A DNA stretch of 64,000 bases. Origin: Escherichia coli. Lineage in GTDB: Bacteria; Pseudomonadota; Gammaproteobacteria; Enterobacterales; Enterobacteriaceae. Positions within the stretch are counted from its first letter, which is position 1. Every line of letters begins with the position of its first letter. The notes under the pieces are model-generated. The model was not told the DNA's origin. It did not search any database and was given only the letters and a program-made list of their open reading frames with translations. The DNA lies in the NCBI RefSeq assembly GCF_011045215.1, contig NZ_CP049201.1; one strand, written 5' to 3'. Position numbers and translations under genes: made by a program. Positions 33,101 to 40,387 of this stretch are shown here, piece after piece.

Positions 33101-34926
33101 TGAAATTGCAAAAGCAATTACTGGAAGCTGTGGAGCACAAACAGCTACGCCCGCTGGATGTGCAATTTGCCCTGACCGTGGCGGGAGATGAACATCCTGC
33201 CGTCACCATCGCGGCGGCACTGTTAAGTCATGATGCCGGAGAGGGACACGTTTGTTTGCCGCTTTCACGACTGGAAAATAACGAGGCGTCGCATCCGCTG
33301 TTGGCGACCTGTGTCAGTGAAATCGGTGAGCTACAAAATTGGGAAGAATGCTTGTTGGCTTCTCAAGCGGTCAGCAGGGGAGATGAACCCACGCCGATGA
33401 TCCTCTGTGGCGATCGTCTTTATTTGAATCGCATGTGGTGTAACGAGCGGACGGTAGCGCGCTTCTTCAATGAGGTGAATCATGCCATCGAGGTTGATGA
33501 AGCTCTACTGGCGCAAACCCTGGACAAACTTTTTCCAGTAAGCGATGAAATTAACTGGCAAAAAGTTGCAGCGGCAGTGGCGCTGACGCGGCGGATCTCG
33601 GTGATTTCCGGCGGCCCAGGCACCGGTAAAACGACCACCGTGGCGAAGTTGCTGGCAGCGTTAATTCAAATGGCCGACGGCGAACGCTGCCGTATCCGTC
33701 TGGCTGCACCAACGGGTAAAGCTGCCGCGCGCTTAACCGAATCTCTCGGCAAGGCTTTGCGACAGTTACCGCTGACCAATGAACAAAAGAAACGCATTCC
33801 GGAAGATGCCAGCACTTTGCACCGATTGCTGGGCGCGCAGCCGGGTAGCCAGCGTTTACGTCATCATGCCGGTAACCCGCTGCATCTTGATGTGCTGGTG
33901 GTAGATGAAGCGTCAATGATCGATCTGCCTATGATGTCGAGACTGATCGACGCCTTGCCAGATCATGCGCGAGTGATCTTTCTCGGCGATCGTGATCAAC
34001 TGGCCTCGGTTGAGGCTGGGGCTGTGCTGGGCGATATCTGCGCTTATGCCAACGCGGGCTTTACCGCCGAGCGTGCCAGGCAGCTAAGCCGCCTGACGGG
34101 GACTCACGTTCCGGCTGGAACTGGCACAGAAGCGGCATCTTTGCGCGACAGTCTCTGCCTGCTGCAAAAAAGCTATCGTTTCGGCAGCGATTCTGGCATT
34201 GGTCAGTTAGCTGCGGCGATCAACCGTGGTGATAAAACGGCAGTGAAAACCGTTTTTCAGCAGGATTTTACTGATATCGAAAAACGGCTTTTACAGAGCG
34301 GCGAAGATTATATTGCGATGCTTGAGGAAGCTCTTGCGGGTTATGGACGTTATCTGGATCTGCTGCAAGCGCGTGCCGAGCCGGATTTAATCATTCAGGC
34401 GTTCAATGAGTACCAACTTTTGTGCGCCCTGCGGGAAGGGCCATTTGGCGTGGCTGGACTGAATGAGCGAATTGAGCAGTTTATGCAACAGAAGCGCAAA
34501 ATTCATCGTAATCCGCACTCTCGTTGGTACGAAGGCCGACCGGTGATGATTGCCCGTAATGACAGCGCGCTTGGGTTGTTTAATGGCGATATCGGTATTG
34601 CGCTGGATCGCGGGCAGGGGACGCGCGTCTGGTTTGCGATGCCGGACGGCAATATTAAGTCTGTGCAACCGAGTCGTTTGCCAGAGCACGAAACTACGTG
34701 GGCGATGACGGTACATAAATCGCAGGGATCGGAGTTCGACCATGCGGCGTTGATTTTGCTGAGCCAACGCACGCCGGTAGTAACGCGAGAGCTGGTTTAT
34801 ACCGCGGTGACCCGCGCGCGTCGCCGTCTGTCGCTGTATGCCGATGAGCGCATATTAAGTGCGGCAATCGCCACTCGTACTGAGCGGCGCAGTGGTCTGG
34901 CGGCGTTGTTTAGTTCACGGGAATAA
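33100..34926 (+). CDS. recD: exodeoxyribonuclease V alpha subunit
   Basis: 608-aa ORF, start overlaps recB stop (TAATG); Walker [11 protein letters not shown]. Confidence 0.97.
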
Positions 34927-34934
34927 ACGTAATT

Positions 34935-35056
34935 GCCGGATGCGACGCACGAGTGTTACGCCTGCCGCATCCGGCGATTTTCGTCGCTTACCCTAAATCC
35001 GCCATCAACATCTTCGATTTTACGTAGGTCGGATAAGGCGTCCACGCCGCATCCGA
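34935..35056. repeat. REP/BIME cluster between recD and argA
   Basis: Two REP-like palindromic units (GCCGGATGCGACGC...GCATCCGGC and GTAGGTCGGATAAGGCGTCCACGCCGCATCCGAC) and a roughly 50-bp direct repeat GATTTTCGTCGCTTACCCTAAATCCGCCAT. Confidence 0.7.
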
Positions 35057-35069
35057 CGATTTTCGTCGC

Positions 35070-36401
35070 TTACCCTAAATCCGCCATTAACACTTTGGAT
35101 TTACGCTGGTAGTTGTACAACTGCTTTTTGCTTTCGGGCAGTAAATCAATATCCACTGGGGTAAATCCACGTTCCTGGAACCAGTGAATACTGCGCGTGG
35201 TCAGCACAAACAATTTGCTTAAGCCGCTCTGCTTCGCCTGAGCGGCAATGCGTTCCAGCAGAACTTCACCCCTTGATGAACTGCGGTAATCCGGGTGAAC
35301 TGCCACACAGGCCATTTCCCCAATCTTCTCTTCCGGGAACGGATAGAGCGCGGCGCAGGCAATAGTCGTGTTATCGCGCTGAATAATGGTGAATTTGTCG
35401 ATTTCCATCTCCAGCTGCTCGCGAGAACGGCGTACCAGAATACCTTGCTGCTCCAGCGGGCGAATCAACTCCAGAATACCGCCAATATCGTTGATTGTTG
35501 CGCGACGAATCTGCTCGGCGCTTTCCATCACAATCTGCGTACCGATACCGTCGCGTGAGAACAACTCTTGCAACAGCGCGCCATCTTCCTGATAACTGAT
35601 TAAATGACAGCGACGCACGCCGCTGCGGCAGGCTTTCACTGCGCCACGCAAAAAGCGCACCGTACCGGAGTTGTAATCACCTTTCTCTTCCTGGGCTTCT
35701 ACCCGCGCTTGCGCTTCGTTAGGGAAAAGTTCGGAGACAATATCACCGTCGTCATTAGTGACGCCCTGGGAAGAGCAAAAACCAATCATCTTTTCAGCTT
35801 TCAGTTTGATGGCCAGTTGAGTGGCAATCTCTTCCGAGGTCAGATTAAAGCTCTCGCCAGTGACTGAAACAGCGACCGGCCCCATTAGCACTATTGCACC
35901 GCTGTCCAGTTGACGATGGATCGCGTCTTCATCAATCCGCCGGATACGCCCGCTATGGCAGTAATCCACGCCGTCATCGACGCCCAGCGGCTGGGCAATA
36001 ATAAAATTGCCACTGACGACGTTGATATGCGCGCCCTGCAGCGGCGTGTTATTGAGACTCATCGACAGGCGAGCCGTAATATCCAGTTGCAATGTTCCCG
36101 CAGCCTGCTTCACCAGTTCCAGTGTTTTGGCGTCGGTCACACGTATATTCTTGTGATACAGCGGTTCGTGGTGATGCGCAGCCAGATTTGCGTCGATCTG
36201 CGGACGTGCGCCATAGACCACCACCAGACGGATGCCGAGGCTGTGCAACAACCCGATATCATTAACGATACTGGAGAAATTCTCATGCTCAATGGCTTCA
36301 CCGCCGAGCATGATGACAAACGTTTTTCCCCGGTGGGTATTGATATAGGGAACCGAATGGCGGAATCCCTCGACCAGCTCGGTTTTACGTTCCTTTACCA
36401 C
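35070..36401 (-). CDS. argA: N-acetylglutamate synthase
   Basis: ORF trimmed to the GTG start giving [20 protein letters not shown] (443 aa). Confidence 0.93.
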
Positions 36402-37914: not shown

Positions 37915-37959
37915 TAGGAGACCAGAAACAAAAAAACACCCGCTAGGGTGTTCAATAAT

Positions 37960-38036
<77 letters not shown>

Positions 38037-38244
38037 TCCGTGGATGCGCACTATACTCCGCTCGCGTTTTCATGCAACCTTTTTTTTACCCCGATCACGG
38101 ATCTGGCATGATTTTGAACAAAAACAAATCACTAAAGCCTATTTTTTGTGCAAAATTTGCGTCAGGGAGAGGCTGCTCATTTCATTAAACGCGGTGGTTT
38201 GTTATCTTCGTTGCGCCTTATTTTTTAACCTGAAGAAGAGAACA

Positions 38245-39342
38245 ATGAAAGGACGTTGGGTAAAGTACCTTCTTATGGGCACGGTTGTGGCAATGCTTGC
38301 CGCCTGCTCTTCCAAACCAACCGATCGCGGACAGCAATATAAAGACGGGAAATTTACCCAGCCTTTCTCTCTGGTGAACCAACCAGATGCCGTTGGCGCG
38401 CCGATTAACGCCGGTGATTTTGCCGAGCAAATTAACCATATCCGTAATTCGTCACCGCGTCTGTATGGCAACCAGAGTAATGTTTATAACGCGGTGCAAG
38501 AGTGGCTGCGCGCAGGCGGTGATACCCGCAATATGCGCCAGTTCGGCATTGATGCCTGGCAGATGGAAGGTGCCGACAATTATGGTAACGTGCAGTTTAC
38601 AGGCTATTACACGCCGGTAATTCAGGCGCGCCATACCCGCCAGGGCGAGTTCCAGTATCCGATTTACCGTATGCCGCCAAAACGTGGTCGTCTGCCGTCT
38701 CGTGCGGAGATCTACGCGGGGGCATTGAGCGATAAATACATCCTCGCTTACAGCAACTCTCTGATGGATAATTTCATTATGGATGTGCAGGGTAGTGGGT
38801 ATATCGACTTTGGTGATGGCAGTCCGCTTAACTTTTTCAGCTATGCAGGGAAAAACGGTCATGCCTATCGCAGCATTGGTAAGGTGCTGATCGACCGTGG
38901 CGAAGTGAAAAAAGAAGATATGTCGATGCAGGCGATTCGTCACTGGGGCGAAACACACAGTGAAGCCGAGGTTCGCGAGCTGCTGGAACAGAACCCGTCT
39001 TTCGTTTTCTTTAAACCGCAATCTTTTGCACCGGTGAAAGGGGCAAGTGCGGTGCCGCTGGTTGGCCGTGCTTCTGTTGCCTCTGATCGTTCAATTATTC
39101 CGCCAGGTACAACCTTGCTGGCAGAAGTGCCGCTGCTGGATAATAACGGCAAATTTAACGGTCAGTATGAACTGCGTCTGATGGTGGCACTGGATGTCGG
39201 TGGCGCAATCAAAGGCCAACACTTCGATATCTATCAAGGGATCGGGCCGGAAGCCGGACACCGCGCAGGTTGGTACAACCACTATGGACGTGTCTGGGTG
39301 CTGAAAACGGCTCCGGGCGCAGGTAACGTCTTTAGCGGCTGA
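38245..39342 (+). CDS. mltA: membrane-bound lytic murein transglycosylase A
   Basis: ORF trimmed to MKGRWVKYLLMGTVVAMLAAC (lipobox), 365 aa; the longer track ORF from 37948 would overlap the tRNA. Confidence 0.95.
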   Translation: MKGRWVKYLLMGTVVAMLAACSSKPTDRGQQYKDGKFTQPFSLVNQPDAVGAPINAGDFAEQINHIRNSSPRLYGNQSNVYNAVQEWLRAGGDTRNMRQFGIDAWQMEGADNYGNVQFTGYYTPVIQARHTRQGEFQYPIYRMPPKRGRLPSRAEIYAGALSDKYILAYSNSLMDNFIMDVQGSGYIDFGDGSPLNFFSYAGKNGHAYRSIGKVLIDRGEVKKEDMSMQAIRHWGETHSEAEVRELLEQNPSFVFFKPQSFAPVKGASAVPLVGRASVASDRSIIPPGTTLLAEVPLLDNNGKFNGQYELRLMVALDVGGAIKGQHFDIYQGIGPEAGHRAGWYNHYGRVWVLKTAPGAGNVFSG

Positions 39343-39376
39343 TGTGATATTCTGTATGCCGTTTTTACGGATATGA

Positions 39377-39560
39377 CAGGGTGAGGGATAACCTCACATC
39401 CTGATTATTGACTAAGTGCGCGTTGTTCATGCCGGATGCGGCGTGAACGCCTTATCCAGCCTACAAATCATGCAAATCCAAAATATTGCAGGAGTTATGT
39501 AGGCCTGATAAGCGTAGCGCATCAGGCATTTATGCGTTTAGGGTGAGGGATAACCTCGCC
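39377..39560. repeat. BIME/RIP-like REP cluster between mltA and tcdA
   Basis: REP GCCGGATGCGGCGTGAACGCCTTATCCAGCCTAC and inverted REP GTAGGCCTGATAAGCGTAGCGCATCAGGC, flanked by two copies of GGGTGAGGGATAACCTC. Confidence 0.7.
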
Positions 39561-39580
39561 CTTTTTAATTCTGAGGTGCT

Positions 39581-40387
39581 ATGTCTGTGGTAATTAGTGA
39601 TGCATGGCGTCAGCGTTTTGGTGGCACAGCGCGTCTGTATGGTGAAAAAGCGTTGCAACTGTTTGCTGACGCGCATATTTGTGTGGTTGGTATCGGTGGT
39701 GTCGGTTCCTGGACGGCGGAAGCGCTGGCGCGCACGGGGATTGGCGCAATCACGCTTATCGATATGGATGATGTGTGCGTCACCAATACCAATCGGCAAA
39801 TTCATGCCCTGCGCGATAACGTTGGGCTGGCAAAAGCGGAAGTCATGGCGGAACGTATTCGCCAGATTAACCCGGAGTGCCGTGTAACGGTGGTGGATGA
39901 TTTCGTGACGCCGGATAACGTAGCGCAATATATGAGTGCCGGTTATTCGTACGTGATTGATGCCATTGATAGTGTACGGCCCAAAGCGGCGCTGATTGCT
40001 TATTGTCGGCGCAATAAAATTCCGCTGGTCACGACCGGTGGCGCGGGTGGGCAGATTGACCCAACGCAGATTCAGGTTACCGATCTGGCGAAAACGATTC
40101 AGGACCCGCTGGCGGCGAAGTTGCGTGAGCGCCTGAAAAGCGATTTTGGCGTAGTGAAAAACAGTAAAGGTAAGCTCGGCGTGGATTGCGTGTTCTCTAC
40201 CGAAGCATTGGTGTACCCGCAGTCAGACGGCACGGTGTGTGCGATGAAAGCCACGGCGGAAGGACCAAAGCGGATGGATTGTGCATCTGGATTTGGCGCG
40301 GCAACTATGGTGACCGCCACCTTTGGGTTTGTTGCGGTTTCTCATGCGCTGAAGAAGATGATGGCGAAAGCGGCGCGTCAGGGGTAA
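39581..40387 (+). CDS. tcdA: tRNA threonylcarbamoyladenosine dehydratase (E1-like)
   Basis: 268-aa ORF with ThiF/MoeB-type nucleotide-binding motif VVGIGGVGSW. Confidence 0.93.
   Translation: MSVVISDAWRQRFGGTARLYGEKALQLFADAHICVVGIGGVGSWTAEALARTGIGAITLIDMDDVCVTNTNRQIHALRDNVGLAKAEVMAERIRQINPECRVTVVDDFVTPDNVAQYMSAGYSYVIDAIDSVRPKAALIAYCRRNKIPLVTTGGAGGQIDPTQIQVTDLAKTIQDPLAAKLRERLKSDFGVVKNSKGKLGVDCVFSTEALVYPQSDGTVCAMKATAEGPKRMDCASGFGAATMVTATFGFVAVSHALKKMMAKAARQG

Follow-up and report, generated by a model that had tools for sequence, protein, structure and literature searches.

A BIME-1 element downstream of Escherichia coli mltA is bracketed by an apparent duplication of the local terminator hairpin

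The window, the whole 64-kb stretch of E. coli chromosomal DNA that was analysed, carries on its plus strand an open reading frame at 37948–39342, closed by a TGA stop at 39340–39342, which the open reading frame list and annotated orthologues identify as mltA. The annotation of E. coli records that are 100% and 99% identical names the product murein transglycosylase A, and in the RefSeq orthologues the gene is 1098 nt long and ends at this same stop. On the same strand, tcdA occupies 39573–40387 if its ribosome binding site (GAGG, 39573–39576) is counted with the coding sequence that begins at the ATG at 39581. The extragenic stretch that separates the mltA stop (39342) from the tcdA start (39581) holds a single BIME-1 unit, downstream of the transcription unit. 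The 451 bases around it are 100% identical to those of strain XH990 and 99.1% identical to those of K-12, which carries a BIME-1 at the same locus, and the RefSeq annotation of K-12 lists no repeat feature between mltA and tcdA. A scan for promoters across 39200–39700 found none, and a short repeat, GCCGTTTTTA/GCCCTTTTTA, is regarded as chance. Elsewhere in the window a second REP region, at 34931–35102, lies between a recD-like open reading frame (ending at 34926) and a convergent argA-like one on the minus strand (ending at 35070). It contains a 57-nt direct repeat, 91% identical with a spacing of 82, which covers the REP tail plus GATTTTCGTCGC TTACCCTAAATCCGCCAT... and includes the stop and last codons of the minus-strand reading frame, so that a REP unit appears to have been duplicated there along with the 3′ end of the neighbouring gene.

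Judged by its sequence, the element after mltA is a BIME-1 (RIP/RIB), a known and ordinary kind in E. coli. Its left terminal segment (39401–39430, CTGATTATTGACTAAGTGCGCGTTGTTCAT, for a family consensus of CAGATTGCTGACAAAGTGCGCTTTGTTCTT) was delimited by alignment to other copies and to a 152-nt consensus, and is followed by a Y-type REP (39431–39464, GCCGGATGCGGCGTGAACGCCTTATCCAGCCTAC) with one mismatch to the Y pattern. The 34-nt L linker (39465–39498), which contains TGCAAATCCAAAATATTGCAG, leads into a Z1-type REP on the minus strand (39499–39527, reading GTAGGCCTGATAAGCGTAGCGCATCAGGC on the plus strand) that is identical to the Z1 of the fepA-entD and mscK-rsmS copies and to a 25-copy consensus. 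Alignment to the consensus also placed what is left of the right terminal segment (39528–39539, ATTTATGCGTTT). The two oppositely oriented REP units recognised in the first-pass annotation are thus a Y and a Z1, with inverted-repeat arms that are 87–92% complementary; their heads are present (...GCCTAC at 39459–39464 and GTAGGCC at 39499–39505), and the two REPs pair with each other in the minimum free energy (MFE) fold. The same annotation had assigned the whole to the BIME/RIP-type composites, and comparison with the family bears this out: the 142 nt between the flanking repeats share 88–89% identity over 137 nt with other BIME-1 copies, for example those at fepA-entD and mscK-rsmS, the matches at other loci being taken from genomes without the mltA-tcdA copy.

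In the alignment with the fepA-entD and mscK-rsmS copies, family homology begins at GATTATTGAC, 28 nt upstream of the Y-REP, and continues through Y, linker and Z1 as far as GCGTTT. Of the two conserved outer segments of the family, the left one is complete in our copy and the right one is cut: it ends after GCGTTT, and the family's final 12 nt, GTCATCAGTCTC, which form the right inverted-repeat end, are absent here and in all orthologues, leaving a right offset of 12 instead of 24. The left junction reads CTGATT, not CAGATT. The same right-end truncation is found in E. coli E69, Escherichia sp. E1V33 and Escherichia sp. MOD1-EC7003 (L056, L081 and L098), so that all filled alleles descend from one old insertion.

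The spacer between the REPs had been proposed to hold an IHF-like site. A degenerate match to the IHF consensus WATCAANNNNTTR is indeed present in the linker, agreeing at 7 of the 9 specified positions, but the stretch originally singled out, AAATCATGCAAATCC, was misplaced, the best match being ATCCAAAATATTG at 39476–39488, 11 nt further right. The family linker core ATTCAATATATTG, found in 65 of 93 linkers, agrees at 8 of the 9 positions, and the core is on this comparison present but weaker here than in most family linkers. Positions 39464–39506 also match the Rfam family RF02751, the ES036 (CssrF) sRNA, with 46.5 bits against a gathering score of 37.6. The 43 nt of the ES036 model are those of the BIME-1 linker together with the REP heads, which every BIME-1 copy contains, so the match identifies the repeat and gives no evidence for a dedicated sRNA gene at this locus; matches to ES036 across the genome are likely to mark BIME-1 copies and not sRNA genes of their own. 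With Rfam RF02564 (naRNA4) the Y-REP matches below threshold, and the sub-threshold matches to mir-76, mir-188 and Ysr224 were set aside as REP stems matching by chance.

The element is bracketed by an exact direct repeat, AGGGTGAGGGATAACCTC, at 39378–39395 and 39540–39557, with a start-to-start spacing of 162. It had been described as a 17-bp motif in two copies and is in fact 18 nt long. When up to three mismatches are allowed, the 17-mer has two matches in the 64-kb window against 0.06 expected, a number not attained in any of 100 shuffles. By comparison with the empty site described below, the duplicated unit extends to 23 nt, with AGGGTGAGGGATAACCTCACATC at 39378–39400 and AGGGTGAGGGATAACCTCGCCCT at 39540–39562 identical at 19 of 23 positions, and the locus resolves into a 23-nt hairpin copy, a 139-nt BIME-1 (39401–39539) and a second 23-nt hairpin copy with a T-run, 23 and 139 adding up to 162.

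Both copies fold on the plus strand, in keeping with the hairpin potential ascribed to the motif. The proximal (left) copy, at 39378–39400, forms 6+4 bp (−14.7 kcal/mol, z −3.5), while the distal (right) copy, which runs into TTTTT and with it spans 39540–39566, reaches −17.2 kcal/mol (z −4.8). With a 9-bp stem containing six GC pairs, a 5-nt loop and TTTTTAATT, the distal hairpin scores as an intrinsic terminator and is the only terminator-like site after mltA. The proximal hairpin fails the same test, having no T-run and a diverged 3′ end, so the terminator role suggested for the composite repeat can be kept for its distal flank and not for its proximal one. The 230-nt 3′ region as a whole is unusually structured (MFE −89.5 kcal/mol, z = −5.7); in the predicted fold the REPs pair together, with the element enclosed by a possible pairing between the outer arms of the two hairpin copies. 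The proximal hairpin would have lost its T-run, while the distal copy would have kept it and remained a terminator, 10 nt upstream of the tcdA ribosome binding site. Transcription of mltA would then pass the first hairpin and the BIME and stop at the second hairpin (39562–39566), giving an mRNA with a highly structured, REP-stabilised 3′ tail. For mltA-tcdA itself the practical message is modest, in that only the distal copy of the hairpin is still terminator-like.

The mltA-tcdA site is filled in 2,751 of 5,426 complete E. coli genomes, the others having 288–289 nt in place of the 451, and the approximately 162 nt missing from these shorter alleles equal the spacing of the repeat. In CFT073 and HCM-28C-2 the empty-type site reads ...ACGGATATGAC AGGGTGAGGG(G/A)TAACCTC(A/G)CCCT TTTTAATTCTGAGGTGCTATG, with one hairpin and one T-run immediately 5′ of the tcdA ribosome binding site, and Salmonella enterica likewise has a single orthologous hairpin, AGGGGTGAGGAATAACCTCGCCTTTTTTT, before tcdA. 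The position of the distal hairpin is identical to that of the single hairpin of the empty-site genomes and of Salmonella. The single hairpin in Salmonella and in the empty sites suggests that one hairpin is the ancestral state and the hairpin-BIME-hairpin arrangement derived. Among the genomes sampled, we found no allele with two hairpins and no BIME, the empty sites having the motif at one place per genome. Those E. coli genomes that lack the element may have kept the ancestral allele, or may have lost the element secondarily by precise deletion between the 18-nt repeats; many of the empty sites could be of the latter kind, since the filled alleles of E69, E1V33 and MOD1-EC7003 share one truncation. 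At least four tandem 162-bp units, each of hairpin plus BIME-1, run into the contig end at mltA-tcdA of MOD1-EC7003 (L098, minus strand 120–790), where alone tandem copies were seen at this locus, indicating that the hairpin copies recombine. Similar tandem arrays of hairpin plus BIME-1 are present at other loci (L100, L103).

Some further arrangements were seen in the neighbourhood of tcdA. HCM-28C-2 (NZ_AP038246.1, L003:1-480) carries a hybrid in which the mltA end is followed by a left-type hairpin and by the left part of BIME-1 through the Y-REP (...GGCCTACAAATC). Immediately 3′ of the Y-REP comes the breakpoint, beyond which the sequence is that of an internal piece of mltA (TGGCAGAAGTGCC...); after it stand another mltA 3′ end, to which the annotation gives pseudogene status, a single empty-type hairpin and tcdA. 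The Salmonella enterica mltA-tcdA spacer (L114:500-545) has an extra palindrome, CCCGATAACGCGATCGCTATCGGG, upstream of the conserved terminator hairpin that is absent in E. coli. An Escherichia-like lineage, taken as a close outgroup on the strength of a 97%-identical TcdA and known from a 1.3-kb contig (Logan SRR18691088, L116:1-70), has a different REP, GTAGGCCTGATAAGGCGCAGCCGCCATCAGGC, directly upstream of tcdA and no AGGGTGAGG hairpin there; it is uninformative on the ancestral state, for which Salmonella was used instead.

Other BIME-1 loci were surveyed by scanning for ATATTGCAG-N(2-10)-GTAGGCCTGATAAGCG in one genome per species, which returned 98 stretches from E. albertii, E. whittamii, other Escherichia lineages and Pseudocitrobacter, and 49 independent loci once tandem arrays and orthologous loci had been removed. 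The score of a locus was that of the best local direct repeat shared by two 90-nt flanks, one to the left of the Y-REP and the other to the right of Z1, with mismatched left/right pairs as control. The flanking direct-repeat score had a median of 20 against 14 in the controls (49 loci; Mann-Whitney p = 3e-12), and 23 of the 49 loci exceeded the 99th percentile of the controls (a score of 21), where about 0.5 would be expected. In 19 of these 23 the repeats stand in a fixed register beside the element ends, the left copy ending 30 nt before the Y-REP and the right copy starting 24 nt after Z1, with a slack of 0–1 nt at each junction in all 14 ungapped cases. The in-register repeats are usually complete, locus-specific, GC-rich hairpins of 16–29 nt; their two copies at one locus are near-identical (22/22, 21/21, 20/20, 17/17), and hairpins from one locus cannot be aligned with those from another. 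A T-run after the hairpin and/or an A-run before it is found at 15 of the 19 in-register loci (four with a T-run only, four with an A-run only and seven with both), suggesting that the targets are terminator-like, and the orientation of the element relative to the target hairpins shows no bias across the 19. The complete unit measures 151–154 nt, with a mode of 152, and its ends, CAGATTGCTGAC and GTCATCAGTCTC, are complementary at 9 of 12 positions. About half of the BIME-1 loci surveyed have no recognisable flanking duplication; these may be old, truncated or differently inserted.

Pairs of empty and filled sites were also compared at other loci. The empty site at tkt-prohibitin reads GAG AAGGGCCGCGAAAGCGGCCCTT TTTTTAC and the filled site AAGGGCCGCGAAAGCGGCCCTT, then the element (CAGATTATTGGC...GCCATCAGTCTC), then AAGGGCCGCGAAAGCGGCCCTT TTTTTAC, which amounts to a perfect 22-bp duplication and a size difference of 174, or 152 + 22. 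At gloC-aspC, filled in 2,810 genomes, the AGCCCGCTTTTTAAGCGGGCT hairpin stands alone in the empty site and flanks the element on both sides in the filled one, and at mscK-rsmS one hairpin again stands against two, in alleles that are too diverged for a clean junction. In Pseudocitrobacter (L024-L036, L042-L051, L083-L089) there are many BIME-1 copies whose Y and Z1 REPs are of the E. coli type, and their flanking hairpin duplications are often perfect (e.g. 21/21, 20/20, 17/17), a pattern of sequence that suggests comparatively recent activity there. BIME-1 matches in unrelated phyla, on a 262-nt contig of Desulfosporosinus sp. OT (L022) and on a contig of a Bacteroides metagenome-assembled genome (L023), are most likely enterobacterial contamination or mis-binned contigs.

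The arrangement at mltA-tcdA is very probably the outcome of a single event, in which one BIME-1, acting as a short non-autonomous mobile element, inserted at the mltA intrinsic terminator and duplicated the whole 23-nt palindrome, leaving a copy on each side of itself. The junctions here are not pristine, the hairpin copies agreeing at 19 of 23 positions and the right 12 nt of the element being missing. On this account the target would be cut at the two feet of the extruded palindrome, once per strand, and gap repair would then copy the palindrome on both sides; cuts at the feet followed by gap repair would fit a duplication length that tracks the palindrome, symmetric boundaries (AA...TT) and the absence of an orientation bias. 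The enzyme responsible would most likely be the REP-associated Y1 transposase (TnpA-REP/RAYT), a weak assignment in that its IS200/IS605-type Y1 relatives are described without target duplication (PMC2817692, PMC3333891). Recombination or slippage between the hairpin direct repeats would afterwards remove the element precisely or amplify it in tandem, and repeats that serve as recombination substrates in this way would fit the roughly 50:50 presence and absence in E. coli. It is also possible, though we would stop short of calling it probable, that BIME-1s in general are discrete MITE-like units of about 152 bp that take intrinsic-terminator palindromes as their specific integration sites and copy the palindrome in full, the length of the duplication (16–29 bp) then being set by the structure of the target and not by the enzyme. 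If so, the hairpin or cruciform would have to be extruded and cut at its two feet, once per strand, and the occurrence of RIP/RIB at the 3′ ends of transcription units, their precise loss and their tandem amplification would all be explained.

Several other explanations of the flanking repeat have to be weighed against insertion into the terminator. The first-pass annotation had taken the motif to be an outer constituent of the composite repeat, which would travel with the element and recur across the genome. BIME-1 does possess conserved segments beyond the REPs, and the motif brackets the element symmetrically. A 34-nt query containing the motif, however, matches at one or two places per genome and never more in 5,425 E. 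coli genomes, always at mltA-tcdA; the motif was not found in 815 kb of other BIME-1 loci, and the two copies here are the only ones in the window. Elsewhere, BIME-1 is flanked by hairpins that differ from locus to locus and agree with the empty site of the locus concerned, and the mltA hairpin is present without any BIME in CFT073 and Salmonella. A motif confined to one locus is the very outcome that had been named as counting against it as a family component, and we give this explanation almost no credence. On the sequence evidence, the motif is a duplicate of the local mltA terminator and does not belong to any repeat family. It would also be very surprising if the terminator had first been duplicated in tandem, or if two independent terminators had stood here, with BIME-1 landing between them later or being copied in by recombination. 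Tandem amplification of a unit containing the hairpin does occur, as in MOD1-EC7003, and convergent or adjacent genes often have a terminator each, but a hairpin-hairpin allele without BIME was not seen in the genomes sampled, and the same course of events would need to have been repeated at no fewer than 19 unrelated loci, each time leaving both copies within 0–1 nt of the element ends. Nor does it sit well with copies that are near-identical within a locus (22/22, 21/21, 20/20, 17/17) and have no alignment between loci.

The remaining alternatives accept the duplication and concern how it was made. At a replication fork stalled by the hairpin, template switching could copy the palindrome, then a BIME-1 template, then the palindrome once more, all without staggered cuts by a transposase. 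Replication is stalled by palindromes and prone to slip at them; BIME-1 itself folds as a long hairpin; these loci, with their tandem arrays and precise deletions, are unstable in replication or recombination; and IS200-like Y1 enzymes make no duplication (PMC2817692). Yet the BIME-1 ends have no homology to their diverse targets by which the two switches could be guided, while the junctions are precise to 0–1 nt (14/14), and defined ends with inverted-repeat complementarity (9/12) point to recognition by an enzyme, which makes template switching a distinctly unlikely route. The enzyme itself could be a classical DDE-type transposase that mobilises BIME-1 as a conventional MITE and strikes the base of extruded cruciforms, in place of the REP-associated Y1 transposase. 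Terminal inverted repeats with a target duplication are the signature of a MITE (PMC3184786), cuts slightly staggered across the base of a four-way junction would, as we infer, give a duplication the size of the palindrome, and the 30-nt and 24-nt end segments conserved outside the REPs could be read in the same way. No parent IS with these ends was noticed in the course of the analysis, and what makes up the body of the element, a REP doublet with GTAG/CTAC heads, is bound and cleaved in vitro by E. coli TnpA-REP (PMC3333891). We therefore consider a DDE-type enzyme unlikely. Insertion of BIME-1 into the mltA terminator, with the REP-associated Y1 transposase as the candidate enzyme, remains the preferred reading, on which the 17-bp motif would be neither a new repeat family nor a protein-binding box, being instead the mltA terminator, present twice owing to the insertion.

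The element itself agrees with the BIME-1/RIP/RIB of E. coli in its inverted Y and Z1, its long linker L with an IHF-type core, its extragenic position at the 3′ end of a transcription unit and a family length of about 140–150 bp; the mltA-tcdA copy differs from the family in being without the last 12 nt of the right end and in an IHF core of 7/9 instead of 8/9. This architecture, and the presence or absence of BIME-1 among E. coli isolates, are already known from PMC3333891 and PMC1187871, the latter citing Bachellier 1997. In the REPIN-RAYT system, hairpin-forming REP doublets are mobilised in trans by a single-copy Y1 transposase (PMC3116915, PMC3333891), and TnpA-REP (RAYT) cleaves BIMEs in vitro (PMC3333891). 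The yafM/tnpA-REP locus lies outside the window. BIME-1 shares with REPINs a pair of REPs in inverted orientation, headed by GTAG/CTAC and capable of folding together as one long hairpin, the many copies per genome and vertical inheritance, but differs in having a duplication of 16–29 bp equal to the target palindrome and conserved segments of 30 nt and 24 nt outside the REPs. IS200/IS605-type transposition is described as producing no target duplication (PMC2817692, PMC3333891), unlike the 23 nt duplicated here and the 16–29 nt at 19 or more other loci.

How REPs and BIMEs spread has been called ‘unknown’ (PMC3333891) and ‘a central, but unresolved issue’ (PMC3116915), a question open since the 1980s, for which defined ends, a structural target and a palindrome-sized duplication would provide testable constraints on the chemistry of integration; the natural filled/empty pairs could be used for assay design. 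Duplicated hairpins, as substrates for precise deletion and tandem amplification, would also explain the known presence/absence polymorphism of BIME-1. In the accessible literature, a scope outside which key papers of the 1990s fall, we found no description of terminator-hairpin duplication by a BIME, REP or REPIN, so that while BIME-1 itself is already known, the hairpin-duplication rule is possibly new.

In Correia and RUP elements the target duplication is TA, short and of fixed length. BIME-1 resembles the Correia/NEMIS, ERIC and RUP MITEs in being short and non-coding, with what may be imperfect terminal inverted repeats, a target duplication and a filled/empty polymorphism, and differs from their short, fixed duplications in that its own varies in length with the target hairpin, the target being a structure and not a sequence. 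REPs have been said not to show the signatures of MITEs, and Correia elements also carry an IHF site (PMC3184786). For BIME-1, a target-site duplication that has its empty site and abuts both element ends is found at mltA-tcdA, tkt-prohibitin and gloC-aspC, and the family consensus ends, complementary at 9 of 12 positions, are putative terminal inverted repeats, of which the mltA-tcdA copy has lost the right one. As for the choice of a GC-rich intergenic stem-loop as landing site, BIME-1 has company among other mobile elements. Group IIC introns insert after terminators. IS1397 and members of the IS621/IS110 family insert into REPs (PMC1525189, PMC3184786). These introns and insertion sequences differ from BIME-1 in that they encode their own enzyme and do not duplicate the whole hairpin at which they land.
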